Below, in pieces: positions 4,051-36,569 of a stretch of 64,000 nucleotides of DNA. Numbering within the stretch: position 1 is the first letter of the stretch; the number at the start of each line of letters is the position of its first letter. Origin of the DNA: Candidatus Cloacimonadota bacterium. Lineage in GTDB: Bacteria > Cloacimonadota > Cloacimonadia > Cloacimonadales > TCS61. The notes under the pieces are model-generated. The model saw only the letters and a list, made by a program, of their open reading frames with translations, made no database searches and had not been told where the DNA came from. The position numbers and the translations under genes are program-made. The stretch lies in the NCBI GenBank assembly GCA_021734835.1, contig JAIPIH010000002.1:141979-205978 (forward strand), read 5' to 3'.

Positions 4051-4062
4051 CTAATAGGTATT

Positions 4063-4818
4063 ATGAAACAGGAAATTGATAACAACAACCCGGCAATCTT
4101 AAATTTACGAACTATTATTCTCATCGTATCTGCTCTCACTACTTTATCCGTTGTTTACAATTCAATTTTTATGCAAGTTTCTTTGATCTCAACAGCTATT
4201 ATCTTAAATTTAACGATTCAGCCTTCTCAGAATAGATTTTACAGACTTTATCACAGAATGAAACTTGTGTTAAAGATCATTACGATCATGTTGATATTTC
4301 AAGTTCTGTTTCGTCAGGGTGGTGAGATAATTTGGCAATACGGTTTTATCAAAATAACCGAAACTGGCTTGAATTACGGAATATCTTCCTCATTGCGTAT
4401 GTTGTTAATAGTTGTAATTGCTGGTTTACTTTTTGATATTCCATATCATGAATACATTATAGCTTTTCGTAAATGGAAGATTCCCTATGAAATATCATTT
4501 TTAGTAGCATCCACAATTCACTTTATTCCCATTTTTCAAAAGCAGTTTACCATAAGTAAAGAAGCGTTAAATCTGCGGGGTATTGAGTTATCAAAAGTTA
4601 AACTTAGCTCGAGAATTAAATTGTTTTCTGCTCTTGTGTTTCCAGTTATAGCAAAATCAATTTACCAAGTGAAATATCGCTCGATCTCTTTGGAATTAAA
4701 AGCTTTCAGGATCTCACCTGTTCGTACTTATATCTACGAAAACAAGTTAAAATGGTTTGATCTTGTACTTCAGATCTTAGCTGTTTGCGGATTTTTCGGA
4801 ATATTATTTCTATATTAA
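4063..4818 (+). CDS. ECF transporter transmembrane (T) component, EcfT/CbiQ-like
   Basis: 251 aa with multiple TM helices. Coupling-helix-like motifs (SSSLRM, EALNLRGIEL), as in the CbiQ/EcfT family. Sits in the same cluster as the two ECF-type ATPases. Confidence 0.65.
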   Translation: MKQEIDNNNPAILNLRTIILIVSALTTLSVVYNSIFMQVSLISTAIILNLTIQPSQNRFYRLYHRMKLVLKIITIMLIFQVLFRQGGEIIWQYGFIKITETGLNYGISSSLRMLLIVVIAGLLFDIPYHEYIIAFRKWKIPYEISFLVASTIHFIPIFQKQFTISKEALNLRGIELSKVKLSSRIKLFSALVFPVIAKSIYQVKYRSISLELKAFRISPVRTYIYENKLKWFDLVLQILAVCGFFGILFLY

Positions 4819-4921
4819 TGTAGATAATTATCAATATTGAATTAAATGTTTATCAAAACTTTTTAATTTGACAAACATCTAAGTTTTTTTAATTTTAATT
4901 ATTATTTACAAAGGAGAGGAT

Positions 4922-6733: not shown

Positions 6734-7566
6734 TGGGCAGATCCAAACAGATTGACAGACGCTGGTTATTCCTCTTGATTTTTGTTGGGGTTGCTTTACC
6801 ACTGATCTTTAAGATCGGCTTACCATTAGAAACCTCAAAGAATGTTCAAATGGTTCATGATCTGGTAGAGAATACACCAAAAGGATCAATAGCATTGATC
6901 TCTTTTGATTATGATCCTGCTAGTATGCCTGAGCTGCATCCGATGGCAAAAACTTTGGTAAAACACTGTTTCAAAAAAAATATAAAATTGATCTTTACTG
7001 CTATGTGGCCAATGGGTGTGCAAATGGCAGAAGATATTTTGGCGCAATTAGAAAATGAATATCCTGATCTTGTTTATGGAGAAGATTATGTGAATCTCGG
7101 CTTTAAAGCAGGGGGAATGATAACTATCCAATCTATGGGTAAAAATTTTGCTGAAGTCTTTCCTAAAGATGTGAATGGTAATGACGTCATGGATCTACCA
7201 ATTTTAGACGGCATTAAGAATTTCAATAACATTGGTTTTGTCTTTTCCTTATCTGCTGGTGCTCCCGGAATTAAAGAATGGGTACAAATTGCCCATGATG
7301 CTTATGGTAGACCAACTTCCGGTGGTGTTACCGGTGTAAGTGCTCCGGCAATTTTACCCTATGTTAATGAACAAAAACAGCTGACGGGTTTATTGGCCGG
7401 ACTCAAGGCTGCTGCAGAATATGAATTTTTAACTTTCTCCCCTGGAACGGCAACAAGCGGGATGGATGCCCAATCGATAGCTCATTTGATCATTATAATC
7501 TTTATAATTATTGGAAATGTAAACTACTGGCGGAATAAGCGTTCCCGGGAAAAAGGGGAGGATTAA
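6733..7566 (+). CDS. unknown bitopic protein C (N- and C-terminal TM anchors flanking a ~200-aa soluble domain)
   Basis: TAATG overlap with ORF B, preceded by GGGAGG. TM helices WLFLLIFVGVALPLIF and IAHLIIIIFIIIGNV. No family recognised. Confidence 0.7.
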   Translation: MGRSKQIDRRWLFLLIFVGVALPLIFKIGLPLETSKNVQMVHDLVENTPKGSIALISFDYDPASMPELHPMAKTLVKHCFKKNIKLIFTAMWPMGVQMAEDILAQLENEYPDLVYGEDYVNLGFKAGGMITIQSMGKNFAEVFPKDVNGNDVMDLPILDGIKNFNNIGFVFSLSAGAPGIKEWVQIAHDAYGRPTSGGVTGVSAPAILPYVNEQKQLTGLLAGLKAAAEYEFLTFSPGTATSGMDAQSIAHLIIIIFIIIGNVNYWRNKRSREKGED

Positions 7567-8207
7567 TGGAACAGTTTTTCACAACATTAGGTGTTTGGCT
7601 CGGAGCTTTTTTTACATTTGCGATCTTTAGTTTCCTTTATAAAGATAATCCCTTTTACAAAGCTGCTGAGCAGATATTTGTTGGACTATCAGCAGGTTAT
7701 TGGTTCGTTTATACTATATTTTTTATTTTGATCCCAAATCTATATGATCCGCTTACTAGTGATTTTAATGCAAACTGGATCAAGCTTATTCCTGCTGTCC
7801 TGGGTATCATGATGTTAATGAGATTGATACCTAAAACAGAATGGGTAAGCAGATTCCCGATTTCGGTCGTGATAGGTACAACATCCGGTGTATTTTTTCT
7901 CAGGTATTTGAAATCAGATGTCTTAAATCAGATAACTGCAACTATGATAAATCCCTTCCAAAGTGATGATTGGGTGATGGTAATTGGAAATATCATGCTA
8001 ATTGTTGGTACGATCTGCGGTGTAATTTATTTTTATTTCAGTAAGAAACATGAAGGTGTGTTCGGTGTTTCAGCGAAAATTGGGATATATTTTCTAATGG
8101 TTAGTTTTGGTGCTGCTTTTGGTTATACGGCAATGGCGCGTATTTCATTACTAATTGGAAGACTGCAGTTTTTACTAGGTGATTGGTTAGGGATCATTCA
8201 TCCCTAA
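7566..8207 (+). CDS. unknown polytopic membrane protein D (~6 TM)
   Basis: TAATG overlap with ORF C, preceded by GGAGG. About six hydrophobic helices. No family recognised. Confidence 0.7.
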   Translation: MEQFFTTLGVWLGAFFTFAIFSFLYKDNPFYKAAEQIFVGLSAGYWFVYTIFFILIPNLYDPLTSDFNANWIKLIPAVLGIMMLMRLIPKTEWVSRFPISVVIGTTSGVFFLRYLKSDVLNQITATMINPFQSDDWVMVIGNIMLIVGTICGVIYFYFSKKHEGVFGVSAKIGIYFLMVSFGAAFGYTAMARISLLIGRLQFLLGDWLGIIHP

Positions 8208-8218
8208 ATAAATTTAAT

Positions 8219-10066
8219 ATGAAAAAGTATATAATTCTATTTCTCTTTGCGGTGATAATTGTAAAGGTTGCTGCATTAACCAGACTGGATTTTTTAAAGC
8301 AGCAGTTGGAAACCGCTTCCGGTTTGCAAGAGATCGTAATTTTAGATGAATTACAAAAAGCTTATTGGAAGATATACCCCCAAGCAAGTTTAGAATACGG
8401 AATTCAAGCTTTGAAATCTTCTACAAATCTAAAAAATGAATTACAAAAAGGAAAACAACTTAATAATATTGCTATATCTTATAAACATTTAGAAGATTAC
8501 GAAAAGGCAATAGAATATATGACTTTATGCCTTCGTCAGGTTAAAAAAATTAATGATATCGAGTTACAGATCAATGCTTTGTATTACCTTGCTTCCTTTG
8601 AAAATGCTTTAGCGCGTAACGTAAAAGCTTTTGAATATGCTTTAGAAGCATTAGATTTGAGTAAAAAGTCGAAAAACCATCCCGGTTTGGCTAAATGCCA
8701 TTTCATTATTGCGGAAATATATTTTGATTTGAACGACCTCAAAGGTGCTTATGAGAATTATCTGATATCCCTTGCGGAACACGAAAACTTTGATGATAAA
8801 TCTTCTTACGCGCTTACAAATGAAAAACTAGGCGAAATCGATCTGTATAATAAGAATTACAACTATGCGGAAGATCATTTTTATACAGCATCTGAAAATT
8901 ATGAGGCAATTAATGATCTGGAAAGTTTGGTTAGAACTTACCAAGCTCTCGGAAGAATTTATAAAGAATCCGGTGAAAAAGAAAAAGCACTTGAATATGT
9001 TGAAAAGTATGCCGAAACAAATGAACAACTTAATCAGAGGATCATAAAAAATAAATTATTACATAATTATGAATATTATAATGTTATTGGCAGTGAAGAT
9101 AAAGCACTGGAATATTATAAATTATATACCGCTCATTTGGATTCTCTAAAGACCGAGATCAAACAAAAACAGGTTGATGAGTTGATTAGCGATATTGAGT
9201 ATAAGCATGAAAAAGAAAAAGCTAAAACAACTGAAAAGATTTTGGAAGTAGAAAGAACCGCAGAAGAAAAATTAGAAGAAAAACAACAAAAGATCGAAAA
9301 GCTGGTCAATGAAACACAATATATAGAAAAAATTGCTAAATTAGAAAATGATAAAATCATAAAACAAATTGAGGCAATGCAAAATGAACGAAATTTAAAA
9401 GAAGTCGAGTTAAAAAGACAACAAAAGATAAATAAAATAACAATTTATATAGCAATAATTATAGGAGTTTTTATTGTAATAATTGGGTTTATTGCTTATA
9501 GTAGATATAAATTACAGGAAAAATATACTTCCGAAATGGAAAAAATTGCTAAAACAGATCTTTTAACGCAATTACCAAATCGCCGTGCTGTTCTGGATCA
9601 GATCAACTATGAAGTGAACAGGTTCTTACGAAACAATGAGCCTTTCACCATTGTTATTAGTGATATTGACGATTTTAAGAACATTAATGATTCTTATGGT
9701 CATGATGTTGGTGATAAAGTGTTGATCGCTTTGGCGAAGTTAATAAAAGATTCTATACGGAAACAAGATATTTGCGCGCGTTGGGGCGGAGAAGAATTCC
9801 TCTTTCTTCTGCCTGGAACTGATGCAAAAGGCGGACTGACTATTTCTGAAAAAATCAGAAAAAAAATTGAGAAAGAGAAAATAAAACATGGTGAGAATCT
9901 ACTCACGTTTACAATGACCTTTGGAGTGAGTACTTATACCAAGGGATCAACAGTTGATGAATGCATTACTAGAGCCGATAAAGCTCTTTATCAAGGTAAG
10001 AAAACAGGAAAAAACAGAGTTGAATGTTTTAAGCAGACTCCTGTGAAGAGTAAAAGATCAAAATGA
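8219..10066 (+). CDS. diguanylate cyclase: signal peptide, TPR repeats, coiled coil, TM, GGDEF domain
   Basis: ATG at 8219 (MKKYIILFLFAV...) is preferred over the TTG at 8183. TPR-like repeats, then a long E/K-rich coiled coil, then TM ITIYIAIIIGVFIVIIGFIAY. GGDEF domain with LTQLPNRR, I-site RKQD and active site GGEEF. Confidence 0.85.
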   Translation: MKKYIILFLFAVIIVKVAALTRLDFLKQQLETASGLQEIVILDELQKAYWKIYPQASLEYGIQALKSSTNLKNELQKGKQLNNIAISYKHLEDYEKAIEYMTLCLRQVKKINDIELQINALYYLASFENALARNVKAFEYALEALDLSKKSKNHPGLAKCHFIIAEIYFDLNDLKGAYENYLISLAEHENFDDKSSYALTNEKLGEIDLYNKNYNYAEDHFYTASENYEAINDLESLVRTYQALGRIYKESGEKEKALEYVEKYAETNEQLNQRIIKNKLLHNYEYYNVIGSEDKALEYYKLYTAHLDSLKTEIKQKQVDELISDIEYKHEKEKAKTTEKILEVERTAEEKLEEKQQKIEKLVNETQYIEKIAKLENDKIIKQIEAMQNERNLKEVELKRQQKINKITIYIAIIIGVFIVIIGFIAYSRYKLQEKYTSEMEKIAKTDLLTQLPNRRAVLDQINYEVNRFLRNNEPFTIVISDIDDFKNINDSYGHDVGDKVLIALAKLIKDSIRKQDICARWGGEEFLFLLPGTDAKGGLTISEKIRKKIEKEKIKHGENLLTFTMTFGVSTYTKGSTVDECITRADKALYQGKKTGKNRVECFKQTPVKSKRSK

Positions 10067-10812
10067 AAGTTCTAAGTATAACAGGATATCATCATTCCGG
10101 CAAAACAACTGTAGCTATCGGATTGATAAAGGAGCTAAAAAAACGCGGATACTCAGTAACTTCCATCAAGGATATTCATTATCAAGATTTTACTATGGAA
10201 AAAAGAGGAAGTAATAGTTGGAAACATTTGCAAGCCAGCGGTAGTACAGTAATTGCCAGAGGACCTTCCGAGACATATCAAATCTGGAATAAACAACTTA
10301 CTTTAAACGAAATGCTGGCAAATTTACACTGTGATTTTGTGGTCGTAGAAGGCATGAAAGATGCTGATCTTCCCCGTATAATCTCTGCTAAAAATGAAGA
10401 TCAATTAGAGGAACTTGTCGATGAGACTGTATTCGCTGTTTCAGGAATTTATGGAAACAATCATAATAAATATAAAAATTTAACTGTCTTCAATTCATCT
10501 GAGCAAATAAGTGAACTAGCCGATTTAACAGTTAAAAAAGTATTCGATGTTTTACCACAAGCACAGGAAGAATGCTGCGGGGAATGTGGACTTAACTGCC
10601 GGCAGATGGTTGCAGGAATTCTTGCAGGACGGAATAAAAGAGAAGATTGCAAAGTGGATAACGATCCTAAAATTAACGTGAAGATCGGCGGAAAAGATAT
10701 GAAAATTGTACCTTATGTGCAAAACACTTTGAAGGATGTGATCAAAGCTTATGTAAAAAACCTGAAAGGATATGATGATGGAAATAGCATAGAAATTAGA
10801 ATCAGAGAGTGA
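10063..10812 (+). CDS. mobB: MobB-like molybdopterin-guanine dinucleotide biosynthesis adaptor fused to a Cys-rich C-terminal domain
   Basis: ATGA overlap with the cyclase gene. P-loop ITGYHHSGKTT and MobB-like N-terminal ~160 aa. The C-terminal extension carries CCGECGLNC...C. Confidence 0.7.
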   Translation: MKVLSITGYHHSGKTTVAIGLIKELKKRGYSVTSIKDIHYQDFTMEKRGSNSWKHLQASGSTVIARGPSETYQIWNKQLTLNEMLANLHCDFVVVEGMKDADLPRIISAKNEDQLEELVDETVFAVSGIYGNNHNKYKNLTVFNSSEQISELADLTVKKVFDVLPQAQEECCGECGLNCRQMVAGILAGRNKREDCKVDNDPKINVKIGGKDMKIVPYVQNTLKDVIKAYVKNLKGYDDGNSIEIRIRE

Positions 10813-10814
10813 TA

Positions 10815-11414
10815 ATGAAAAATGAGATAATTATTAACAAAAATAAAAGACAGGTTATCAAAATTTGTAATACTCCCAAAATGTTTAAAAAAGAACTTTA
10901 TATTTACAAATATCATTTACCATATACGCCAAGATTGATCGATAATGACGGCAAAAATACCCTCATTCTTGAATATATAGATGGGATCCCGATATTTGAC
11001 ATGGCTGAACCAGATTTCGTTAAAATAACTAAATTAATTATGCACTTCCATTCTATTGAGCCTCAGGGAAACAAATGTATCTGTCACTACGATAACAATC
11101 CCAGGAATTTTCTGTTCTCAAATGGTAAATATTATATACTGGATTTTAGTGAATGGATTTATGATTATCCGGAAACTGACCTTATCCATTTTCTATTGTT
11201 TTGTGCGTCTGAATACAATCTCAGTAAATTCCGCAAAGTTTTTAAGCAAGTAACGGAAACATACAGATCTGCTAGAATGATAAATCCTTTAGAATGGGAG
11301 CTGCTGATCCCGGAAGTAATTTTCAGATTTGATTCCAGAAGGAAAAAATTCCATAAGTATAAAGATAATCCTGATCTTTCCGAAAATAGAGATTTTTTGA
11401 AGAATATTCTTTAA
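10815..11414 (+). CDS. small protein-kinase-like fold phosphotransferase (APH / choline / Kdo-kinase-like)
   Basis: Catalytic-loop-like HYDNNPRNFLF followed by YILDFSEW (HxDxxxxN ... DF pattern). ATG at 10815; an alternative GTG at 10809 would overlap the mobB stop. Confidence 0.55.
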   Translation: MKNEIIINKNKRQVIKICNTPKMFKKELYIYKYHLPYTPRLIDNDGKNTLILEYIDGIPIFDMAEPDFVKITKLIMHFHSIEPQGNKCICHYDNNPRNFLFSNGKYYILDFSEWIYDYPETDLIHFLLFCASEYNLSKFRKVFKQVTETYRSARMINPLEWELLIPEVIFRFDSRRKKFHKYKDNPDLSENRDFLKNIL

Positions 11415-11421
11415 TCAGTTA

Positions 11422-11976
11422 TTACAATCCAAATATATAAATTGTCGTTTCGCCTACTTGAAGATCAAGTGCTTCTTCCTGAAATTCCGAGCCGAAAGAA
11501 TCAGTTATTTTTATATAATTAAAATCAGGTTCAACAGACAAGACAGAACTGATGTTTTCTGAGTAAATTGGTTCTTCAATAATGCTATCTCCCCAATCAT
11601 CATCACCTTCTCGTCTCAAATAAACTGCACTTATCGTATATACGGAAGGATTACTGATCTGCAATCCAGCACGATCAAATGTAATATGATATTTTTTATT
11701 AACATTGGCTTTGATCCTAAAAACCTTCTCTTTTGATTCTAAAAAAACCTGCCCCTCTAGTATAAATGGAACTTTCAAAGTTTCACTAAATAAAATATAT
11801 GAATTTACATAAAATGTTTGAGCAGCGGGTGGATCGGCAGGCAAAAGATGATAAATTCTATCTCCTAAAACAAAACTTACAGAGTTTTCTGTATCATTAA
11901 AGATCTCAATCTCAGATTCTGTTGCGCAGGCGGTTATTAAAATTAATACTAATGTAGATAAAATGATTCTCACCAT
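11422..11976 (-). CDS. lipoprotein, function unknown
   Basis: The internal ATG at 11976 is preceded by AGGAGG. Signal peptide MVRIILSTLVLILITAC with a lipobox. The 7-codon upstream extension in the ORF track is unlikely. Confidence 0.6.
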   Translation of the reverse strand: MVRIILSTLVLILITACATESEIEIFNDTENSVSFVLGDRIYHLLPADPPAAQTFYVNSYILFSETLKVPFILEGQVFLESKEKVFRIKANVNKKYHITFDRAGLQISNPSVYTISAVYLRREGDDDWGDSIIEEPIYSENISSVLSVEPDFNYIKITDSFGSEFQEEALDLQVGETTIYIFGL

Positions 11977-12122
11977 ATTGCCTCCTAAATAATTCATTAA
12001 ACTAGACAGATTATTTTATTATAAATGTAAAGAAAAAGTTATTCTTGACAGAGGGAAAGATTTAATAATATTTTCTTTTAAAGAATATTTAAATTTCAAA
12101 TTACCTTGTGGAGTGTAGTAGA

Positions 12123-12431
12123 ATGAAAATTTTTGTTGGGAATTTGACACGCGATATTGGTAAAGAAACTTTACTTGACTTGTTCAGTGATTATGGTGAT
12201 GTCCAAGCAGTCAATATCCTGATAGATAAGATCGATGGTGAATGGAAAGCCTTTGCATTCATTGATATGCCACAAGAGAAAGAAGCCTGGGATGCTATTG
12301 CAGCACTTGATAATAAAGAACACTTTGGTCATACTTTGATCGTACATCAAGCTCGGTACCGCACAAAAGACAGAAGAGGTCCTGATAGACAGGGCGGAAG
12401 ACGATACACAGATCTTCCTGAAGTAACATAG
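12123..12431 (+). CDS. RRM-domain RNA-binding protein with Arg-rich C-terminal tail
   Basis: RNP2 IFVGNL and RNP1-like KAFAFIDM. Tail VHQARYRTKDRRGPDRQGGRR. ATG at 12123 is preferred over the upstream GTG. Confidence 0.85.
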   Translation: MKIFVGNLTRDIGKETLLDLFSDYGDVQAVNILIDKIDGEWKAFAFIDMPQEKEAWDAIAALDNKEHFGHTLIVHQARYRTKDRRGPDRQGGRRYTDLPEVT

Positions 12432-19726: not shown

Positions 19727-21079
19727 ATGAAAAAATTCACACCTGTTAGAATAGTTGAAGAGCTTGATAAATATATTATTGGTCAGGAAAAAGCTAAAAG
19801 AGCAGTGGCAATTGCTTTAAGAAATCGGTGGAGAAGACAGCAGGTGGAAGGCGAATTACAACAAGAGATAATGCCGAATAATATCATTTTGATAGGACCG
19901 ACAGGTGTTGGAAAAACCGAGATCGCACGTCGTCTTTCAAGACTAGCAGGAGCTCCGTTCATAAAAGTGGAAGCTTCCAAATTTACTGAAGTAGGATATG
20001 TAGGAAGAGATGTAGAATCTATGATCCGAGAACTTATGAATATCGCACTGAATGATGTTAGAGTGGAGATGACAAAGAGGGTGCAGGTTCAGGCCAAAAT
20101 TAATGCTCGCAATCGCATTATTGACATTCTCTATCCCAAACCACCTGGAAATCCAAAAGATGATGCAGAAGAGACCAAGAAAAAAGAAGAAAGATATCAA
20201 CGAATCCGCTTGAAAATGGAGAAACTTTTTGATACAGGTGAATTAAATAACAGAGAAGTCGAGATATCTTCCGAAAGACATGCTGCTCATATTGAATTAC
20301 TCTCTCACACAGGTACTGAGAATTTTGAACTTCCAATCGGTGAGATACTAGGTGGATTACTGCCACGAAGACAAGGTGAAAAGAAGAAAAAAGTCAGAGT
20401 TGATAAAGCCTATAAAGTACTTATTGATGAAGAAGCAAGTAAACTTGTAAAACCGGAACTTGTAAAAGAAGAAGCAAAAAAGCGGGTTGAAAACAATGGC
20501 ATTATCTTTATTGATGAAATCGATAAAATTGCCGGTAACGAAAACCGCACGGGAGCTGATGTCTCACGTTCTGGGGTACAGCGTGATCTACTGCCAATTG
20601 TTGAAGGCTCGAACGTTCCAACAAAACAAGGTCTGATTAATACATCTCACATTTTATTCATCGCAGCAGGTGCATTTACTACATCAAAACCTTCTGACCT
20701 GATTCCGGAATTACAAGGAAGATTCCCTATTAGAGAAGAATTAAACAGTCTCACTAAGGATGATCTCAGAAAAATACTTCTCTATCCCAGAAACTCATTA
20801 ACTAAGCAGTATATAGCTCTGTTTAAAGCGGAAAATGTAAAATTAGCTTTTAAAGATGATGCCGTTGAAGCTATAGCCGATTTTGCTTCTAAAGCTAACA
20901 ACAAAATGGAAGATATCGGAGCAAGAAGGCTTCATACTATCATGAATTCACTTTTAGATGATCATCTTTTTAGCATGCCAGATCCTAAAATTAAAACTGT
21001 TACTATTACTAAGAATAAAGTTAATAAAAAACTTGATAAGATCATTAAAAACGAAGATCTATCGAAATATATTTTATAA
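19727..21079 (+). CDS. hslU: ATP-dependent protease ATPase subunit HslU
   Basis: LDKYIIGQEKAKRAVAIALRNRWRR, Walker A GPTGVGKTEIARRLA, Walker B IIFIDEIDK. Confidence 0.95.
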   Translation: MKKFTPVRIVEELDKYIIGQEKAKRAVAIALRNRWRRQQVEGELQQEIMPNNIILIGPTGVGKTEIARRLSRLAGAPFIKVEASKFTEVGYVGRDVESMIRELMNIALNDVRVEMTKRVQVQAKINARNRIIDILYPKPPGNPKDDAEETKKKEERYQRIRLKMEKLFDTGELNNREVEISSERHAAHIELLSHTGTENFELPIGEILGGLLPRRQGEKKKKVRVDKAYKVLIDEEASKLVKPELVKEEAKKRVENNGIIFIDEIDKIAGNENRTGADVSRSGVQRDLLPIVEGSNVPTKQGLINTSHILFIAAGAFTTSKPSDLIPELQGRFPIREELNSLTKDDLRKILLYPRNSLTKQYIALFKAENVKLAFKDDAVEAIADFASKANNKMEDIGARRLHTIMNSLLDDHLFSMPDPKIKTVTITKNKVNKKLDKIIKNEDLSKYIL

Positions 21080-27102: not shown

Positions 27103-27525
27103 ATGAAAGTTTTAGTATGGGATAAAGAGAAATGTATTGGCTGCCGAACTTGTGAAAAGGTTTGTTCCCAAACATGGTTCAAAGAAGAGAATAGAGACAA
27201 GTCGCGTATTAAGATAACTGAGACTGAAAATGGATTTGAAAGTAACTTTTGTAATCAATGCGGGGAGTGTATTCTGGTTTGTCCTGTCGAAGCACTAACC
27301 CGTAATGCAAAAGGTATCGTTAGATTAAATGACAAGACTTGTGTAGGCTGTTTATCGTGCGTAGGATTTTGTCCTTCCCAATCGATGTTTATTGCCAAAA
27401 CCGAACCAAAGCCATTTAAATGTATTTCTTGTGGAGTTTGTGTAAAGAATTGCCCGTCAGGAGCTCTCGCCTTACAAGAACTACCCGAACCATTGGAAAA
27501 AGTATTTTACAGGAGGCACTTCTAA
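27103..27525 (+). CDS. poly-[4Fe-4S] ferredoxin (AOR electron-transfer partner)
   Basis: Four Cys cluster motifs: CIGCRTCEKVC, CNQCGECILVCP, CVGCLSCVGFCP, CISCGVCVKNCP. TAATG overlap with the AOR gene. Confidence 0.85.
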   Translation: MKVLVWDKEKCIGCRTCEKVCSQTWFKEENRDKSRIKITETENGFESNFCNQCGECILVCPVEALTRNAKGIVRLNDKTCVGCLSCVGFCPSQSMFIAKTEPKPFKCISCGVCVKNCPSGALALQELPEPLEKVFYRRHF

Positions 27526-29702
27526 TGAATATTTATAAAAATAAATACAATGTAGATCAAATTAAGGAAAATCACAAAATCATTGCAGAATTTAAATATG
27601 ATATCAAAAAACTCTCCCTTGGATATTCAAACAAAACATTACATATCAACCTTGGTAAATCAAAGATCAGTTCAAAAGAAGTTTCACAAGAGATGAAAGA
27701 TAAATTTACCGGAGGACGCGGTTTTAACCTCAAATTATTGTGGGATGCTGTCAATGAAAATACAAAATGGGATTCTCCTGAAAATGAAATCGTTATCGCA
27801 GCCGGTCCTATGAGCGGTATTACTCAATACCCAGGAACGGGGAAATCTATAGTATGCGGGATATCTCCACTCACACAAGCACCTGTGGATAGTAATGTTG
27901 GAGGTTATTTCGGTCCTTATTTAAAATTTTCAGGTTGGGATGCAATAGAACTTCAAGGTATCTCAAAGAAGGACGTAATTGTCTATATCAATGGAGATGA
28001 AGGTCTAATTCAGATAATTGAAGCCCCCAAGGAAGATGTCAATTCTCATTTGATCTCTGAACAAATGTGCGATATATTTGCAGAAAATGAAATGGATATG
28101 AAATCAATTGCTACTGTTAGTGCCGGTCAAGGTGCCGAAAACAGCTTTTTTGGCTGCTTAAATTTCAGTTTTTATGATAGGCGCAGAAAGGTGGCTAGAC
28201 TGAAACAAGCTGGTCGCGGTGGACTGGGAACACTTTTCCGTCATAAGAAAGTAAAAGCAGTAGTTTGTAAATTTAGTAGTTTAAATTTTAATAACAACGA
28301 AGTAGATAATCTGGAAATGATCAAGGAAGTGGGCAAAAATTATCATCGAGAGCTATATGAGGAAGATGATAAACAATGTGATATGCGTCATGTTGGAACA
28401 GCTCATCTTGTCGAGATAATGGATGATTATGATCTGCTTCCTACCCATAATTACAAATTTGGTTCTGACTCTAAAACACCTAAGATTTCTTCTCCAATCT
28501 GGAGAGAAATGTTTACACAAGGGATTCCTGACGGATGCTGGTATGGATGTTCAATGCAATGCGCAAAATGTGTGGATGGTTATGTGCTGAGAACAGGACC
28601 TTATAAAGGAGATACTGTTTCTGTAGATGGCCCGGAATATGAGACAGCAGCTGCCTTCGGTGCCAATATGGGCATCTTTGATCCTCACTTTATTGTCGAA
28701 GCTAATTTCTATTGTGATACTTATGCGATTGATACTATCTCTTTTGGAACAACAATGGCATTTATCATGGAATGTTATGAAAATAATATTATTAACAAAG
28801 AGATAACAGGCGGCTATGATCTATCATTTGGAAATGGTGAAGAAGCTCTGAATATGCTGCATCTAATGGCCTCCGGAGTTGGCTTTGGCAAAACTATCGG
28901 CCTGGGGATCAGAAGACTAAAAAAATTATTCGTCGATAAATATAATGCTGATGCAAATTTTCTAAATGATATTGGAATGGAATGCAAAGGAATGGAATAT
29001 TCCGAATATATGACTAAAGAATCTCTCGCTATGCAAGGCGGATATGGTTTAGCTCTCAAGGGTGCACAACACGATGAAGCCTGGCTGATCTTTATGGATA
29101 TGGTAAACAATCAAATTCCTACATTTGAAGATAAGGCTGAAGCTCTTCATTACTTCCCTATGTTCAGGACATGGTTTGGTTTGCAGGGCTTGTGTAAGCT
29201 GCCATGGAATGACGTTGAACCGGCTGATAATGCTGAGACTGAAGAACCTGCAAAAGTTCCTTCTCATGTACAGAATTATGTTGATATTTTTAATTCTATA
29301 ACAGGTAGAAAAATTGATAAAAATGAAATGATCTTGCAATCTGAACGTGTATATAATTTCCAACGCGTTTTCAATTTAAGAATGGGCTTTGGTACCAGAA
29401 CTTCTGATAAGATACCCTATCGTTCTGCTGGTCCTGTAACAAATGAGGAATATCTTTCCAGAGAAGACCGTTATGATAAGCAGTTACAAGAGAAATGGAA
29501 CTGGAATCCCAAAGGAAAATCTGTTGATGAAAGAAAAAATAAACTAAGACAATTTCGTGAAGATGCCTATCAGCAACTCTGTGATGCTGTTTATAAAAGA
29601 CGCGGCTGGGATAATAACGGGGTTCCAACAATTAATAAAATGAAAGAACTTAAAATGGATCTGCCCGGTGTGATCGAAGTTCTGAAAAAATATGGGCAAT
29701 AA
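27525..29702 (+). CDS. aor: aldehyde:ferredoxin oxidoreductase family (tungsten/molybdopterin) enzyme
   Basis: ATG at 27525 is preceded by AGGAGG (27511-27516). AOR N-terminal domain motif FTGGRGFNLKLLW, Cys cluster DGCWYGCSMQCAKC and later GLCKLPW. 725 aa. Confidence 0.85.
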   Translation: MNIYKNKYNVDQIKENHKIIAEFKYDIKKLSLGYSNKTLHINLGKSKISSKEVSQEMKDKFTGGRGFNLKLLWDAVNENTKWDSPENEIVIAAGPMSGITQYPGTGKSIVCGISPLTQAPVDSNVGGYFGPYLKFSGWDAIELQGISKKDVIVYINGDEGLIQIIEAPKEDVNSHLISEQMCDIFAENEMDMKSIATVSAGQGAENSFFGCLNFSFYDRRRKVARLKQAGRGGLGTLFRHKKVKAVVCKFSSLNFNNNEVDNLEMIKEVGKNYHRELYEEDDKQCDMRHVGTAHLVEIMDDYDLLPTHNYKFGSDSKTPKISSPIWREMFTQGIPDGCWYGCSMQCAKCVDGYVLRTGPYKGDTVSVDGPEYETAAAFGANMGIFDPHFIVEANFYCDTYAIDTISFGTTMAFIMECYENNIINKEITGGYDLSFGNGEEALNMLHLMASGVGFGKTIGLGIRRLKKLFVDKYNADANFLNDIGMECKGMEYSEYMTKESLAMQGGYGLALKGAQHDEAWLIFMDMVNNQIPTFEDKAEALHYFPMFRTWFGLQGLCKLPWNDVEPADNAETEEPAKVPSHVQNYVDIFNSITGRKIDKNEMILQSERVYNFQRVFNLRMGFGTRTSDKIPYRSAGPVTNEEYLSREDRYDKQLQEKWNWNPKGKSVDERKNKLRQFREDAYQQLCDAVYKRRGWDNNGVPTINKMKELKMDLPGVIEVLKKYGQ

Positions 29703-29726
29703 TTACCACTTGGAAATTGTTATATA

Positions 29727-30344
29727 ATGAGCAGTATGAAGAAAGAAGAATTTTTTTCAAAGCATGATCAACGGATCATTCCTAAACTGCAAAGAGCTGT
29801 AATCGGCATTGCAGGAGCAGGAGGTTTAGGTTCTAATGTTGCAATTTCATTAACCAGAGCTGGTATTGGAGAGCTTATCATTGCTGACTTCGATAAAATA
29901 GAACCTTCCAATTTGAATAGACAGCAGTATTTTCAAAATCAAATAGGACTACCAAAGGTTGCAGCATTAAAAGATAATTTGGAGAAGATAAGCCCCTTCA
30001 CAAGAGTAAAGATTTATGAAGTTAAACTTGATAAAACTAACATCATCCCAATATTCAAAAATGTTGATATTTTAGTAGAAGCTTTTGATAAATCTGAGAT
30101 GAAAGTGATGCTGATCGAAACCTGGCTGGGGAAATTCCCTAAAAAACCAATCATAGCAGCTTCTGGGCTGGCCGGCTGGGGAAAAAATGAATTGATTCAT
30201 ACAAAACAGATTGATAACTTGTTGATATGTGGTGATGAGGAATCAAGAGTTACAGAAGCTATCTCTCCACTGAGCCCAAGAGTAGGTATTATCGCTAATA
30301 TGCAGGCAAACTTAGTTTTGGAGCTGTTGCTGAGTAAAATATGA
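29727..30344 (+). CDS. ThiF/MoeB-family sulfur-carrier adenylyltransferase (short form)
   Basis: Nucleotide-binding GAGGLGSNVA and DFD...SNLNRQ motifs. 205 aa. Confidence 0.8.
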   Translation: MSSMKKEEFFSKHDQRIIPKLQRAVIGIAGAGGLGSNVAISLTRAGIGELIIADFDKIEPSNLNRQQYFQNQIGLPKVAALKDNLEKISPFTRVKIYEVKLDKTNIIPIFKNVDILVEAFDKSEMKVMLIETWLGKFPKKPIIAASGLAGWGKNELIHTKQIDNLLICGDEESRVTEAISPLSPRVGIIANMQANLVLELLLSKI

Positions 30345-30544
30345 AAACTATAACTGTTAACGGAAATGAAATTAATTGGGAAAAGGATATAAACATCGAC
30401 GATTTACTCAAAAAAATGAATTATACTTTTAAAATGATAGTTGTGAAAATTGATGGTAATCTTATAAAAAAAAATGAGTATAAATCCACTATAGTTTATG
30501 CAGGAGCTGATGTAAAAGTTATTCATCTGGTTAGTGGTGGATAA
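30341..30544 (+). CDS. ThiS/MoaD-family ubiquitin-like sulfur carrier
   Basis: 67 aa ending in ...VSGG, the C-terminal Gly-Gly. ATGA overlap with the ThiF-like gene. Confidence 0.8.
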   Translation: MKTITVNGNEINWEKDINIDDLLKKMNYTFKMIVVKIDGNLIKKNEYKSTIVYAGADVKVIHLVSGG

Positions 30545-31985: not shown

Positions 31986-32015
31986 GCCTTGTATTAAAAT
32001 ACATATTTTTATCAT

Positions 32016-32047
32016 TTTGATAAATTTTAACACACTTTGTTATCAAA
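32016..32047 (+). promoter_or_regulatory. dyad TTTGATAA-N16-TTATCAAA, candidate upstream activator site
   Basis: Perfect 8-bp inverted repeat arms at 32016-32023 and 32040-32047. Centred about 100 bp upstream of the sigma-54 -24 element. Confidence 0.4.
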
Positions 32048-32130
32048 CTAATAAAATCTAACCCATTAACAATTCCCTAAATATCTTCCATCGGTATGCA
32101 CATCAACAGGTTATAGTACGACCTTATATT

Positions 32131-32146
32131 TGGCACATATCTTGCA
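32131..32146 (+). promoter_or_regulatory. sigma-54 (RpoN) -24/-12 promoter
   Basis: TGGCACatatcTTGCA matches the consensus TGGCAC-N5-TTGCW exactly in both sequence and spacing. Intergenic, correctly oriented, about 115 bp upstream of the PDZ gene. A GAFTGA-type activator is encoded 3 kb downstream. Confidence 0.8.
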
Positions 32147-32174: not shown

Positions 32175-32249
32175 ATGGAGAATTTAATTATTAAGTGGCA
32201 GGAAAAGAAACTAAAGGTTATTAACCGATTGATCTGTAAAAATAAGTAA
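32175..32249 (+). CDS. candidate 24-codon mini-ORF (MENLIIKWQEKKLKVINRLICKNK)
   Basis: ATG preceded by AAGGAGG (32164-32170). Lies between the sigma-54 promoter and the PDZ gene. Below the ORF-track size cutoff, with no other support. Confidence 0.25.
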   Translation: MENLIIKWQEKKLKVINRLICKNK

Positions 32250-32260
32250 TAAGGGAGGAT

Positions 32261-33454
32261 ATGATGAACAAGATCATTGCAGCATTAATTTTAATTACAT
32301 GTTCCACACTATTATTGGGACAAGAACAACCCGCACAGAAGATAATGAATGAAACAGATTTTGAAAAGGAATTTGAGGGAATTCAATCCGATACTGAAGA
32401 GATAAATGTAGAGGTATTATCTGCTAAGACATCAGAGGTCACACCCAAAATGGGTCTCTATTTTTCTGATATGGACTTTGAAGACGCTTATCAAAAGCAT
32501 TATCCATATTGTTATGGAGTATATGTAGCAGGTGTTACACAAAATGGGCCTTCCTATAAAGCTGGAATTGTTGCGGGTGACATCATTATGGAATTCGATG
32601 GAAAAATTACCAGATTTGAAAAGCATCTTGTAACCTTGATCAAAAGTAAAAATATTGGAGATGAAGTTAAGGTTAAGATCTTTAGAGATGAAGAAATAGT
32701 CTATGCCAACGTCAAGTTAGATAGTTTAACACCAGCATCAAGTTCTTTCACAATAACAAAAGACGGTAAGGTTACAAAAGCCGCTAAAAAATTATCAGTT
32801 GGCCATGGTGGTGGTGGCTGGATACCTGTTTGGTATATAGATAACGATAAACTGAGAGACTTGAATTATCTTCTCGCAGAATATGGTTTTAATGAATTGG
32901 ATGAAAGCGGCATGTTAATGCACGGTGGCGGAGGTCATGGTAATATTGGAAAAGGTTGGTTTCTAGGTGGTATGGGTGCCGGATATTCGATCGATAAGAA
33001 AAAAGGTTATCAAACTGCTTCCGGCGAATCTGTTACCCGACGAATGTCATATTCAAATACTTTTGGTGGAGTAACATTGGATAAGAGAATTGCGTTTTCC
33101 AGTAATCTGATCTCGTCACTCGGATTTATGCTGGGTTGGGGTGGACATAATTTACAGATATCACAAACGGATGGCAATTATAATTGGGACAGTATGAATG
33201 ATGACATGGATTCAGCAGAAAATAATGCTGTTGAATTAGAGAAAAATTATATATTATTCCAACCAAAAGCAGCTCTGATGTTAAGAATTCTTGATTGGCT
33301 GAGTATCCGTGCTGAAGGTGGGTTGATGCTTTCTCATTCTTATACAAAAGGCTGGGATGCTGTTTCCTGTGAGGATAATTTCCAGATCGACAATTCCCCA
33401 GAAACCTCATATCAGGGTTATACTATTTCTATTGGCCCTTGGTTTGGTTTTTAA
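32261..33454 (+). CDS. secreted PDZ-domain protein with Gly-rich segments and an OMP-like beta-rich C-terminus
   Basis: SD AAGGGAGGA and a signal peptide. PDZ core GVYVAGVTQNGPSYKAGIVAGDIIMEFDG. Gly runs GHGGGGW and HGGGGHGNIGKGW. Alternating-pattern C-terminal region ending ...ISIGPWFGF. Confidence 0.75.
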   Translation: MMNKIIAALILITCSTLLLGQEQPAQKIMNETDFEKEFEGIQSDTEEINVEVLSAKTSEVTPKMGLYFSDMDFEDAYQKHYPYCYGVYVAGVTQNGPSYKAGIVAGDIIMEFDGKITRFEKHLVTLIKSKNIGDEVKVKIFRDEEIVYANVKLDSLTPASSSFTITKDGKVTKAAKKLSVGHGGGGWIPVWYIDNDKLRDLNYLLAEYGFNELDESGMLMHGGGGHGNIGKGWFLGGMGAGYSIDKKKGYQTASGESVTRRMSYSNTFGGVTLDKRIAFSSNLISSLGFMLGWGGHNLQISQTDGNYNWDSMNDDMDSAENNAVELEKNYILFQPKAALMLRILDWLSIRAEGGLMLSHSYTKGWDAVSCEDNFQIDNSPETSYQGYTISIGPWFGF

Positions 33455-33472
33455 TTATTGACACATTTGAAG

Positions 33473-33507
33473 AGTCTCTGACATTTTTTGCCGGAGACTT
33501 TTTTTTT
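33473..33507 (+). terminator. candidate intrinsic terminator or attenuator after the PDZ gene
   Basis: Stem AGTCTCTG / CGGAGACT (8 bp including one G-U) with an 11-nt loop, followed by a run of 9 T. It abuts the AGGAGG SD of the next gene. Confidence 0.45.
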
Positions 33508-33518
33508 AGGAGGATGTA

Positions 33519-34067
33519 GTGTTTCAGGTTCTAGCTGATAAAGTCATTACTGGTTTAGCGGCTCTTTCAATGTTACTCTTGAGTTCTTATCAAGGTAATG
33601 AAGCTAGATTCGAAAATTTTCATACTTCGGTGATCCAAGATAAAGTTTTCCTTGAATACAAGCTTGTTAAAGCATTTGAAAATGATTTTGAAGAGATATT
33701 TAAATCTGGACAAAACATAGAAATAATGTTTAAAATAACCTTCGATTTAAATAACACTGTGATCTTCGAAGACGTTTTTATTCACTCAGTTGTCTTCGAC
33801 CCACTCAAACAGGTTTTTTATGTCATGATCGAAGATAAAGAACTCAACATCACAACTGATTCTTATGAAGAGCTGAAAGCGATCATTTCAGAAGTACAAT
33901 ATAGTTTCGAAGATGAATTGATCTATGATTGTGAAGTAACTATTATGGCATATCTTTCTAAAATACAAATGGTGTCTGCTAAAAAGGATTTTGATCTTAT
34001 GCTACTGTGGAAATACAATAAACCTAAACTAACACATAAGATAATGGGTGAACAGAATGAAAATTAA
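33519..34067 (+). CDS. hypothetical exported or membrane-anchored protein encoded upstream of the sensor kinase
   Basis: GTG start after AGGAGG. N-terminal hydrophobic segment GLAALSMLLLSS. 20-nt overlap with the kinase gene. No family assignable by eye. Confidence 0.5.
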   Translation: MFQVLADKVITGLAALSMLLLSSYQGNEARFENFHTSVIQDKVFLEYKLVKAFENDFEEIFKSGQNIEIMFKITFDLNNTVIFEDVFIHSVVFDPLKQVFYVMIEDKELNITTDSYEELKAIISEVQYSFEDELIYDCEVTIMAYLSKIQMVSAKKDFDLMLLWKYNKPKLTHKIMGEQNEN

Positions 34068-35226
34068 TTTTGGGATCAGATCAAGCTTAATTATTCTATT
34101 TCTACTCTTGTATATTTCAAGTTTATTTATTATTAATAATTTTTTTATTAAAAAATATCAGCAATCGAATAAGTTGTTTCAGGATATGAAATTAGATACT
34201 TCAATCTCAGAGTTGTCTTTTCAAACTGAGCTGGACAGCATTCAGGCTAGAATTCTCCTTAACAAATTCCGACAAAATCTGGCAGATGCTAAAATGCTTA
34301 AACAAGAAGCTCAAATATATTCTATCGCCTTTTTACTTATACTGATGATATTTTCCATTGCCATATTTATAATATTTTTATATAAGATCACAAAACCACT
34401 TGATCAGCTGCAAAAGGCGACAAATAAGATAAAAGATGGAAACTTATCTGTTAATCTTCCGGTAACAGGTATCAAAGAGATACGTAACCTGAAACAATCA
34501 TTTAATGAAATGTCCAGAGAATTGAATTCGACTCAAAAAAAGTTAATCCAATCAGAAAAGAACATTATGTGGAAAGAACTTTCAAGAATCCTTGCTCATG
34601 AGATCAAAAACCCACTTACTCCTATTCAGTTAACCATGCAAAGATTAGAAGAAAAGTATAATAATGATACAGAAAACTTGTATGCTGTTTTCCCCGAATC
34701 TGTGATGATCATTAATCAGGAGATAAACAATTTAAAAAATCTGGTTAGTACTTTCTCAAATTTTGCTAAGAACGTTGAGCCTGAAAGCTCAATATTTAAT
34801 CCGAAAACAGAAATTGCTGAAATCCTTAAATCATATCAAAATGATTTCGAGCTTAAATTATCAGGTCAAAATTGTATGATCAAATTTGATAAAACTCATC
34901 TTTATCAGATTATTACTAATTTAGTTCAAAATGCGATTGAAGCTTCTAAGGAAGACGATATTGTAACTATAACCATTACTCAGAAAGATGATTTTGTAAA
35001 AATCTGTATCTTAGATTCAGGAATTGGGATAAAGGAAACTCAGCTCGATAAAATTTTCGAACCATATTTTACAAACAAGAAGAAAGGTACAGGATTAGGA
35101 TTAGCTCTAGTAAAAAAATTAGTTGATATAAATAATTCATCTATAAATGTGACATCAAAAGAAAATGAAGGTAGTTGTTTTGAAATTATCATTCCAAACT
35201 ACCCTTTTGAAAAGGGAATAGCATGA
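34048..35226 (+). CDS. sensor histidine kinase (2 TM, HAMP, HisKA, HATPase), NtrY/AtoS-like
   Basis: HAMP region around ITKPLDQLQKATNKIKDGNL. H-box LAHEIKNPLTPI, N-box NLVQNAIEA, G-boxes DSGIGI and GTGLGLALV. Confidence 0.85.
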   Translation: MNRMKINFGIRSSLIILFLLLYISSLFIINNFFIKKYQQSNKLFQDMKLDTSISELSFQTELDSIQARILLNKFRQNLADAKMLKQEAQIYSIAFLLILMIFSIAIFIIFLYKITKPLDQLQKATNKIKDGNLSVNLPVTGIKEIRNLKQSFNEMSRELNSTQKKLIQSEKNIMWKELSRILAHEIKNPLTPIQLTMQRLEEKYNNDTENLYAVFPESVMIINQEINNLKNLVSTFSNFAKNVEPESSIFNPKTEIAEILKSYQNDFELKLSGQNCMIKFDKTHLYQIITNLVQNAIEASKEDDIVTITITQKDDFVKICILDSGIGIKETQLDKIFEPYFTNKKKGTGLGLALVKKLVDINNSSINVTSKENEGSCFEIIIPNYPFEKGIA

Positions 35227-36569
35227 AAGTATTGATTATTGATGATGAAATGAATATTTGTTTATCATTAAAAAATATTTTAGAAGATGAAGGATATAGT
35301 TGCAGTTATGTTGTTGATACAAGAAAATGGCTGGATAAATTTGAAGTTGTTAATCCGGATATTATACTTCTAGATGTTAGACTTGATGGCGCAAATGGGA
35401 TAGATCTGCTAAAAGAAATTAAAAACAGGAAGAAAAATACTATCGTAATAATGATCTCAGGGCACAGTGGTATAAAAGAAGCTGTTCAATCCATAAAATA
35501 CGGCGCATATGATTTTCTGGAAAAGCCGCTGAGCTTAACAAAAGTAAAAATAATTATTAAAAAGGCTCTCGAATTTCATAATATGGCTTTAGATTATTCC
35601 AGATTAAAGCAAGATGAAAGTGAAAAGTATAAAATAATTGGGAATAGCAAATCAATCAAAAATCTTCTGGAACTGGTCGATAAGATAGCAGCAAGCAATT
35701 CCAAAGTGCTGATCAGAGGAGAAAGCGGCACCGGAAAAGAGCTGGTTGCCTTCGCTATTCATAATAAGAGTCAGCGCAAATACAAACATTTTGCTAAGTT
35801 CAATTCTGCAGCGATTCCCACCGAACTTGTAGAAAGTGAATTATTCGGATATGAAAAAGGTGCCTTTACCGGAGCTGAAGGTAATAAAGAAGGAAAAATC
35901 GAATTAGCTAATGGTGGAACTCTTTTCCTGGATGAAATTGGCGATATGAGCTTAATGGCACAATCAAAAATTTTGCGGGTAATACAGGAAGGAGAATTTG
36001 AAAGAGTTGGTAGCAACAAAACTCACAAAATTGATGTGCGATTGATTGCCGCAACGCATAAGAACTTGGAGGAACTTGTAAAAACCGGGCAATTTAGAGA
36101 AGATCTTTTCTATAGATTGAATGTAATACCACTGATCACTCCCCCACTCCGCGAACATCCGGAAGATATTCCAATATTAATAGATCATTTTTCTAAGAAA
36201 TTCTCCCAGGAATTGAACTTACCCTTAAAAAAATTTTTACCTGAAACGATATCTGAATTACAATCATGGGAATTCAAAGGGAACATACGAGAATTAAAAA
36301 ATTTAATCGAACGAATATATATTCTGTATCCTTATATGGAAGTTAAATTGGACGATATTATTGATAAAATTGATACGAAAAATGGACATGAACCTTCCTT
36401 CTGGAATGTAATACGCCCTTTCAAAGAAAAGAAGAATGAGTTTGAAAAAAAATATTTGTTGGCTCAATTGAAAATTAATAATGGAAGTATTTCGAAAACT
36501 GCCAAATCGCTCGATTTACAAGTCAGTAATTTATCCAGAAAATTAAAAGAATTAGACATACATTCTTAA
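35223..36569 (+). CDS. sigma-54-dependent response regulator (NtrC/AtoC family)
   Basis: Receiver domain (DIILLDVRL). AAA+ Walker A GESGTGKE, sigma-54 contact loop GAFTGA, Walker B LFLDEIG. C-terminal Fis-type HTH. ATGA overlap with the kinase gene. Confidence 0.9.
   Translation: MKVLIIDDEMNICLSLKNILEDEGYSCSYVVDTRKWLDKFEVVNPDIILLDVRLDGANGIDLLKEIKNRKKNTIVIMISGHSGIKEAVQSIKYGAYDFLEKPLSLTKVKIIIKKALEFHNMALDYSRLKQDESEKYKIIGNSKSIKNLLELVDKIAASNSKVLIRGESGTGKELVAFAIHNKSQRKYKHFAKFNSAAIPTELVESELFGYEKGAFTGAEGNKEGKIELANGGTLFLDEIGDMSLMAQSKILRVIQEGEFERVGSNKTHKIDVRLIAATHKNLEELVKTGQFREDLFYRLNVIPLITPPLREHPEDIPILIDHFSKKFSQELNLPLKKFLPETISELQSWEFKGNIRELKNLIERIYILYPYMEVKLDDIIDKIDTKNGHEPSFWNVIRPFKEKKNEFEKKYLLAQLKINNGSISKTAKSLDLQVSNLSRKLKELDIHS

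Follow-up and report, generated by a model that had tools for sequence, protein, structure and literature searches.

The 64-kb window analysed here (64,000 nucleotides from a Candidatus Cloacimonadota bacterium; assembly GCA_021734835.1, contig JAIPIH010000002.1, positions 141,979 to 205,978) contains an open reading frame (ORF) at 32261..33454 on the forward (+) strand. It is the coding sequence of a 397-aa protein, here called the PDZ-barrel protein, in which a PDZ domain is joined to a confidently predicted outer-membrane beta-barrel. The gene stands behind a conserved sigma-54 promoter and ahead of the genes of a two-component system, and has no paralogue within the window. Translation probably starts at the second ATG (32264), which stands at a better distance than the first from a Shine-Dalgarno sequence, GGAGG, at 32254-32258. 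The protein would then have 396 aa, as does its identical counterpart in the database (P0001), whose sole annotation is 'PDZ domain-containing protein [Candidatus Cloacimonetes bacterium]'. The coding sequence divides as follows.

32261..32320 (+), signal peptide, residues 1-20; predicted helix 2-18, the sole hydrophobic helix-like segment of the protein
32321..32434 (+), acidic, variable, disordered region, residues 21-58; predicted local distance difference test (pLDDT) <50 for residues 18-58
32438..32725 (+), HtrA-type PDZ domain, residues ~60-155, with its putative carboxylate-binding loop K63-M-G65-L intact
32726..32800 (+), flexible basic linker, residues 156-180; pLDDT <50 for residues 158-174; tolerates indels
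32801..33451 (+), predicted eight-stranded outer-membrane beta-barrel, residues 181-397, ending GPWFGF

The AlphaFold2 model of the full-length protein (pLDDT 77.7) shows disorder in the acidic stretch (residues 18-58) and again in the linker (158-174); the PDZ domain between them is well defined, and the C-terminal domain is beta-rich and confidently modelled. Modelled separately, the C-terminal 223 residues gave a pLDDT of 88.7 and a predicted template modelling score (pTM) of 0.82, with eight long strands (183-194, 218-230, 233-251, 257-278, 283-303, 322-344, 347-359 and 386-395; lengths 12-23 residues). A Foldseek search against the Protein Data Bank returned 12 matches at E<=0.001, all of them integral outer-membrane barrels (Ail, OmpA, the Legionella Dot/Icm porin I, CarO and AlkL); the next matches were OmpW, OmpX, TtoA and the N-terminal domain of OprF, and template modelling (TM) scores reached 0.64. 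On the strength of these models, the C-terminal ~215 aa are confidently predicted to form an eight-stranded outer-membrane beta-barrel. A soluble C-terminal fold is contradicted by both the model and the Foldseek search.

Conservation was read from an alignment of 52 homologues of the PDZ-barrel protein (41-67% identity). Its last six residues, GPWFGF, including the terminal Phe, are invariant. The three connections predicted to be periplasmic (231-232, 279-282 and 345-346) are 2-4 residues long and free of indels, and three of the four long connections predicted to be external carry indels (195-217, 252-256 and 304-321), the fourth (360-385) being variable as well. In the membrane-proximal half of each strand, hydrophobic or aromatic residues on one face alternate with Gly, Ser and charged residues on the other, and the conserved D274, R276, K336 and E352 lie on the second face. 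A pattern of this kind marks small outer-membrane barrels that have a polar interior. An even number of strands (eight) combined with a periplasmic C-terminus would place the N-terminal PDZ domain in the periplasm, on a linker of ~25 residues.

An earlier note on this DNA, made from the sequence, had read the ~200-aa C-terminal region as resembling an outer-membrane protein and its end, YTISIGPWFGF, as a barrel signature, a reading borne out by the eight-stranded model, the outer-membrane-barrel matches and the invariant GPWFGF. It had also drawn attention to poly-Gly/His stretches, GHGGGGW (181-187) and HGGGGHGNIGKGWFLGGMGAG (221-241). Both are present, and the Gly-rich segments correspond to barrel strands 1-3. 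Their glycines hold up as invariant (G181, G183, G184, G225, G230, G236, G237 and G239), but their histidines vary, with K or S in the consensus; the motif is therefore one of Gly and not of Gly/His, and a metal-binding Gly/His motif was ruled out on this ground. A lipoprotein signal was rejected likewise: Cys14, which is preceded by Thr, is not conserved, and so the signal is not of the lipoprotein type.

The PDZ domain is identified by PF13180 (PDZ_2; residues 73-153, E 3.5e-14, 53.3 bits against a cutoff of 27), the sole Pfam match of the protein, and profile searches of Pfam and NCBIfam yielded no protease domain and nothing besides the PDZ. Matches to the NCBIfam models of HtrA, RseP and Ctp cover the PDZ segment only, and all lie far below their cutoffs (22-48 bits against 408-800 for the HtrA-type models). 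Upstream of the PDZ there are only ~60 residues, mostly disordered in the AlphaFold2 model. These results agree with the earlier description of a signal peptide and a single PDZ domain with no protease domain, the hydrophobic segment being present at the N-terminus. The absence of a protease domain excludes the PDZ-barrel protein from the HtrA family. Placement in any known PDZ protein family was rejected, given that Pfam and NCBIfam yield local PDZ matches far under the family cutoffs; structure prediction and profile searches, which the earlier note had put forward as checks, thus gave neither a soluble fold nor a match to a known periplasmic PDZ family.

By both Foldseek and hidden Markov model comparison, the best matches of the domain are to PDZ1 of DegP/DegQ. 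Residues M64-G65-L66 align to the MGI that opens PDZ1 of Legionella DegQ, and G65 is invariant among the homologues; from this alignment we take the hydrophobic-Gly-hydrophobic motif to be the carboxylate-binding loop ahead of the first strand of the groove. The PDZ is conserved to the same degree as the barrel. The acidic region before it (21-58) has a high column entropy (1.82) and many indels.

The gene is flanked by the following elements.

32009..32023 (+), distal candidate upstream activator site, palindrome TTATCATTTTGATAA, with the TATCA-N3-TGATA match at 32010-32022; centred ~115 nt ahead of the -24 element and at ~-141 relative to the inferred transcription start
32041..32053 (+), proximal candidate upstream activator site TATCAAACTAATA (1 mismatch); centred ~84 nt ahead of the -24 element and 31 bp 3' of the distal site
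32131..32146 (+), sigma-54 (-24/-12) promoter TGGCACatatcTTGCA; 16/16 match to TGGCAC-N5-TTGCW
32175..32249 (+), 24-aa upstream ORF (MENLIIKWQEKKLKVINRLICKNK) in the leader, with its own AAGGAGG Shine-Dalgarno sequence, between the sigma-54 promoter and the PDZ-barrel gene
33470..33507 (+), intrinsic-terminator-like hairpin with a T9 run; folding energy -17.8 kcal/mol for 33455-33520

The promoter is the only sigma-54 match with <=1 mismatch in the window. As a lone site it is not significant, at least one such match having appeared in 77 of 100 shuffles; it becomes significant through its conservation across loci, as a sigma-54 site of <=2 mismatches lies in the 300 nt upstream in 58 of the 77 orthologous loci, the background rate being 0.013 per 300 nt. 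The palindrome TATCA-N3-TGATA, usually in two copies, lies upstream of the sigma-54 site in 49/59 loci (<=1 mismatch), with centres that cluster ~85 and ~117 nt before the -24 element and a background of 0.07 per 480 nt; the core of the proximal site, TTATCAAA, is invariant among the aligned close relatives. Palindrome and promoter at the correct distance occur together 55 times in 878 kb (the window and related loci, both strands), and every one of these composites is directly upstream of a PDZ-barrel gene. A regulator with a GAFTGA motif is encoded nearby, and the sequence makes the palindromes candidate enhancer sites. With an exact consensus, its conservation across loci and conserved palindromes upstream, the sigma-54 promoter proposed in the earlier note stands.

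A second exact copy of TATCATTTTGATA occurs at 19882-19894, within the Walker A stretch of the hslU coding sequence; it lacks a neighbouring sigma-54 site and is most likely fortuitous. No other target was accepted within the window, the 19882 palindrome having no sigma-54 site and no further good sigma-54 site being present.

Hairpins with T-runs are also found 3' of the gene in two distant loci (L001 and L002), making three lineages in all. With its own promoter and a terminator hairpin, the PDZ-barrel gene is a self-contained, monocistronic sigma-54 unit. A consensus scan for sigma-70 promoters and terminators gave no promoter information and overlooked the terminator, whose loop is long and which was recognised when the sequence was read and folded; an Rfam search of the leader and the 3' end returned nothing meaningful. 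A basic peptide similar to that of the leader ORF is encoded at the equal position in four loci (L003, L004, L006 and L016) and is absent from three (L005, L007 and L010); the ORF could encode a small protein or a regulatory leader peptide. Between the stop codon of the PDZ-barrel gene and the next gene, a TTGACA hexamer is seen in the window (33458-33463), in L001 (~9231-9236) and in L002 (~9332-9337), <=10 nt from the stop codon in the first two. One possible role is as the -35 hexamer of a promoter that serves the kinase operon separately; a convincing -10 element was not seen for it in these three sequences.

Downstream, on the same strand, lie four genes.

33519..34067 (+), exported DUF4390-like (PlrP-like) protein, 182 aa, with an N-terminal hydrophobic segment; overlaps the kinase gene by 20 nt
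34048..35226 (+), sensor histidine kinase with two transmembrane segments, a ~55-aa periplasmic loop, HAMP, HisKA and HATPase_c
35223..36569 (+), NtrC-family response regulator with REC, a sigma-54 AAA+ domain (PF00158, E 2.3e-72) containing GAFTGA, and a Fis-type helix-turn-helix
36591..38336 (+), signal peptide peptidase SppA (TIGR00705, 374 bits against a cutoff of 311), a conserved downstream neighbour by synteny

The 182-aa protein itself matches PF14334 weakly (E 0.0011, 18.9 bits, below the cutoff of 27), and the same family is precomputed on several of its homologues (57-62% identical). In the kinase, Pfam found no PAS or PDC domain, and its NCBIfam kinase matches are all far below cutoffs; lacking PAS, it is not a bona fide NtrY. 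The kinase and regulator genes overlap by 4 nt.

A downstream kinase on the same strand was present in 53/60 loci having enough sequence, and the block in these loci consists of a DUF4390-like periplasmic protein, the histidine kinase, the sigma-54 activator and then SppA. The adjacent two-component system and sppA that the earlier note had pointed out are thus confirmed by profile in their domains and, by the co-occurrence analysis that it had suggested, in their linkage. At L002 synteny is broken upstream of the gene and the downstream block is retained. The seven loci with no adjacent kinase are the most divergent, and six of them keep the promoter-palindrome signature (for example L079), which argues for a true regulatory link over mere gene order. 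Transporter or catabolic genes were not consistently linked at the loci examined. The regulator at 35223..36569 is presumed to be the activator of the promoter at 32131, and the PDZ-barrel protein is most likely the dedicated output of the DUF4390-kinase-regulator system.

The DUF4390 protein PlrP is, on genetic evidence, a periplasmic third component that controls the phosphatase activity of an NtrY-family kinase (PMC13001219, 2026). The accompanying survey of DUF4390/PlrP covered proteobacteria only, and wider use of periplasmic third components was a matter of speculation (PMC13001219). The order of DUF4390-like protein, kinase and sigma-54 activator at the present locus lies outside Proteobacteria.

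Several observations were made on other neighbouring genes. In one Cloacimonadota clade a secreted, repeat-rich protein of 252 aa is encoded between the PDZ-barrel and DUF4390 genes (L034, 7051-7809). At L079, where the adjacent kinase has been lost, the neighbours at 2621-5536, 7210-9426 and 9761-12181 encode large secreted proteins with similar C-terminal tails (...KIIKLK, ...KLIKLK, ...KMILLK) resembling type IX secretion sorting domains. Upstream in the window, a homologue of the pyrimidine/purine nucleoside phosphorylase Ppnp (PF06865; 31105-31419, +) has an unusual Cys-Asn repeat end, ...CNCNCNCT. A block at 27103-30544 (+), with genes for a 4Fe-4S ferredoxin, an aldehyde:ferredoxin oxidoreductase homologue, and ThiF-like and ThiS-like proteins, is syntenic with L001, where the Pfam labels were recorded, and appears unrelated to the PDZ-barrel gene.

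Full-length relatives of the PDZ-barrel protein number >260, nearly all from Cloacimonadota; at least 152 species-representative genomes encode one, and a PDZ-bearing relative is annotated in Fidelibacterota too. The barrel alone, used as query, retrieved 177 cluster representatives. Among these are free-standing barrels of ~250 aa (signal peptide and barrel, no PDZ) from Ignavibacteriales and Cloacimonadota, and a few relatives with long non-PDZ N-terminal regions. Two such proteins from outside the window (P0194 and P0206) have N-terminal regions of ~300 aa, acidic or Gly/Met/Cys-rich, with no PDZ and no Pfam match, and the barrel may therefore serve generally to anchor periplasmic modules of various kinds in the outer membrane. 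Nearly all PDZ-fused members end in GPWFGF, and the ends of the free-standing barrels vary; the idea that the PDZ co-evolves with the C-terminus of its own protein is confounded by the relatedness of the sequences and counts as no more than a lead.

Against the described barrel families (PF13505, PF01389, PF03922 and others), neither the window barrel nor 15 free-standing relatives gave a Pfam match, and one barrel relative showed a sub-threshold glimpse of PF13505 (E 0.072). The barrel relatives carry no Pfam domain and no informative name, and homologues are all labelled 'hypothetical'. By its sequence the barrel is an undescribed family, within which the PDZ fusion is one clade. Literature searches turned up no account of a PDZ domain fused to an outer-membrane barrel, nor of sigma-54 envelope genes in Cloacimonadota. 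The earlier impression that the architecture is not a described family is therefore upheld: no Pfam or NCBIfam family matches the barrel or the fusion. We rate each part as being of a known kind (an HtrA-type PDZ, an eight-stranded barrel, a sigma-54 promoter with enhancer, a two-component system with DUF4390) and the combination as new.

We postulate that the PDZ-barrel protein is a periplasmic PDZ domain tethered to the outer membrane, that it is induced by the adjoining regulator and that it binds hydrophobic C-termini as part of an envelope response; we give this reading a probability of about 0.55. The DUF4390-kinase-regulator system would react to a signal, presumably from the envelope, with the NtrC-type regulator under the control of the small-loop kinase and the exported DUF4390 (PlrP-like) accessory protein. 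Once phosphorylated, the regulator would bind the two palindromes and switch on the sigma-54 promoter. The barrel would then insert into the outer membrane and anchor the flexible HtrA-type PDZ, together with the acidic disordered tail, on the periplasmic face, where the PDZ would most likely capture hydrophobic C-termini left free on that side of the outer membrane. The likeliest ligands would be the aromatic C-terminal tails of unassembled outer-membrane proteins, which the ligand-bound PDZ might hold, pass on or report, as a holdase or an adaptor. The PDZ-barrel protein would in this way be an effector, and possibly a feedback element in the manner of CpxP/ZraP, of a Cloacimonadota envelope response.

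Several points weigh against this interpretation. The full-length model has a pTM of just 0.54 and a disordered linker, so that the orientation and docking of the PDZ are not fixed by it. The proposed ligand, the C-termini of outer-membrane proteins, is drawn purely by analogy with DegS/DegP. The palindrome could be used by another sigma-54 activator. The neighbourhood of SppA, TPR protein, trigger factor and ClpP is broadly syntenic across the phylum, and part of the gene linkage may therefore be inherited gene order. Finally, the parallel with PlrPSR is partial, the kinase having neither PAS nor PDC.

The other readings differ from the favoured one chiefly in which part of the protein is taken to act, and on whom. 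The most credible of them, though unlikely, is that the PDZ-barrel protein is induced by the system and serves mainly as a co-sensor or feedback regulator of the adjoining kinase, its PDZ reporting outer-membrane-protein C-termini or titrating the DUF4390 protein and so tuning kinase or phosphatase activity across the periplasm. A gene that adjoins an envelope two-component system and is its strongest target often codes for a feedback modulator of this sort, as with CpxP (of CpxAR) and ZraP (of the sigma-54-dependent ZraSR). The tight linkage in 53/60 loci fits, as does the DUF4390 accessory protein, of a type that controls kinase phosphatase activity, and a kinase with a periplasmic loop of only ~55 aa probably needs accessory sensors. 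However, an anchor in the outer membrane would put the PDZ far from the loop of the inner-membrane kinase, and the divergent kinase-less loci that keep promoter and enhancer (6/7) suit a regulon member equally well as a partner. A bolder variant, which we consider speculative and improbable, combines the two roles in a signalling circuit across the envelope, made up of the PDZ-barrel protein, the DUF4390 protein, the kinase with its short loop and the sigma-54 activator. The anchored PDZ would detect unassembled outer-membrane proteins by their C-termini and signal this, without proteolysis, to the inner-membrane kinase, and would also be the induced output of the circuit. If true, the Cloacimonadota/Fidelibacterota lineage would have a functional analogue of DegS-RseA that needs neither sigma-E nor a protease.

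That the barrel itself is the functional part, an on-demand small channel of the OmpW/AlkL/CarO kind for a hydrophobic or small solute with the PDZ as periplasmic gate or dock for a binding protein, seems to us quite unlikely. The best structural matches do include OmpW, AlkL and CarO, strands 1-3 have a face of nearly pure glycine that could give an open lumen or an opening at the side, and barrels without a PDZ exist in Ignavibacteriales and Cloacimonadota; yet the PDZ is conserved as much as the barrel, the conserved charged residues D274, R276, K336 and E352 resemble the closed interior of OmpA/OmpX, and no transporter or catabolic genes are consistently linked. One might also picture a PDZ that passes through the barrel, or alongside it, to the cell surface and there binds external peptides or partner cells, in the manner of an autotransporter. 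In its favour, the domain order (passenger-like module at the N-terminus, flexible linker, barrel at the C-terminus) is like that of type V secretion, and lumen-facing residues are rich in glycine. Such export is very improbable: with eight predicted strands rather than the 12 of classical autotransporters, the protein is not an autotransporter (type Va), and autotransporter structures rank only 39th and 50th in the Foldseek search (TM-scores <=0.36), no helical plug or pore helix is predicted, and the nearest relatives of the PDZ are the periplasmic PDZ1 domains of HtrA proteins. Least probable of all is an ordinary periplasmic PDZ protein with a soluble beta-rich C-terminal domain. The failure of every known outer-membrane-barrel family profile to match the region would suit it, but the Foldseek matches at E<=0.001 are without exception integral outer-membrane barrels, and strands of 12-23 residues with one hydrophobic face, an invariant terminal Phe and short, indel-free turns on one side speak for insertion in a membrane.

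Envelope quality control is known almost wholly from Proteobacteria, where PDZ domains sense the C-termini of outer-membrane proteins within the proteases DegS, DegP and RseP. The present locus offers, in a phylum of uncultivated anaerobes, a protease-free PDZ joined to an outer-membrane barrel of an uncharacterised family, under one of the cleanest single-gene sigma-54 regulatory signatures. The PDZ-barrel protein is a testable candidate for the monitoring or buffering of outer-membrane assembly in non-proteobacterial diderms, and a defined candidate target for a three-component system of the DUF4390 type, the outputs of which are poorly known. The locus also adds a new barrel family for annotation and provides a compact promoter-enhancer-regulator module for Cloacimonadota, at present without genetic tools.

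Among known systems, PlrP-PlrS-PlrR and NtrYX are arranged as here, with the gene for an exported DUF4390 protein (here a DUF4390-like one) directly upstream of, and overlapping, the kinase gene and a REC regulator of the NtrC/NtrX lineage next. The kinases differ, as NtrY and PlrS have PAS (and PlrS also PDC) and the kinase here has neither. The beta-proteobacterial NtrX/PlrR lack the sigma-54 AAA+ domain (PMC13001219), whereas the present regulator keeps a functional-looking one. PlrSR belongs to Proteobacteria, with no PDZ-barrel target described; the present system belongs to Cloacimonadota. In ZraPSR and CpxP/CpxAR, as at our locus, a two-component system lies beside one gene under strong regulation whose product is an exported envelope protein, and ZraR is likewise a sigma-54 activator, which drives zraP; ZraP and CpxP are soluble helical proteins unrelated to the PDZ-barrel protein. 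The comparison bears on how the present system may work and not on family membership. The promoter region recalls NtrC-dependent glnAp2 in having two dyad candidate activator sites about three helical turns apart, at ~-110 and ~-140, ahead of a -24/-12 promoter; the site here, seen as sequence, differs from that of glnAp2, being TATCA-N3-TGATA.

At the protein level, PDZ1 of the HtrA family (DegP, DegQ and DegS) is the nearest match to residues ~60-155 in sequence and fold and has the carboxylate-binding loop in common; by analogy, a periplasmic location and recognition of hydrophobic C-termini under envelope stress would be the shared theme. Unlike the HtrA proteases, the PDZ-barrel protein has no trypsin-like domain, and its PDZ is predicted to be tethered to an outer-membrane barrel and not to a protease or inner-membrane anchor. 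The barrel agrees with the OmpA N-terminal domain, OmpX/Ail, OmpW, CarO and Thermus TtoA in fold class, strand number and terminal aromatic residue, and is predicted to have the short periplasmic turns and long external loops of OmpA/OmpX/OmpW-type barrels. It differs from the latter in having no detectable sequence relationship to them, TM-scores of 0.5-0.64, and invariant Gly motifs and a GPWFGF end of its own. In OmpA the periplasmic module is C-terminal and binds peptidoglycan, whereas the module here is N-terminal and a PDZ.

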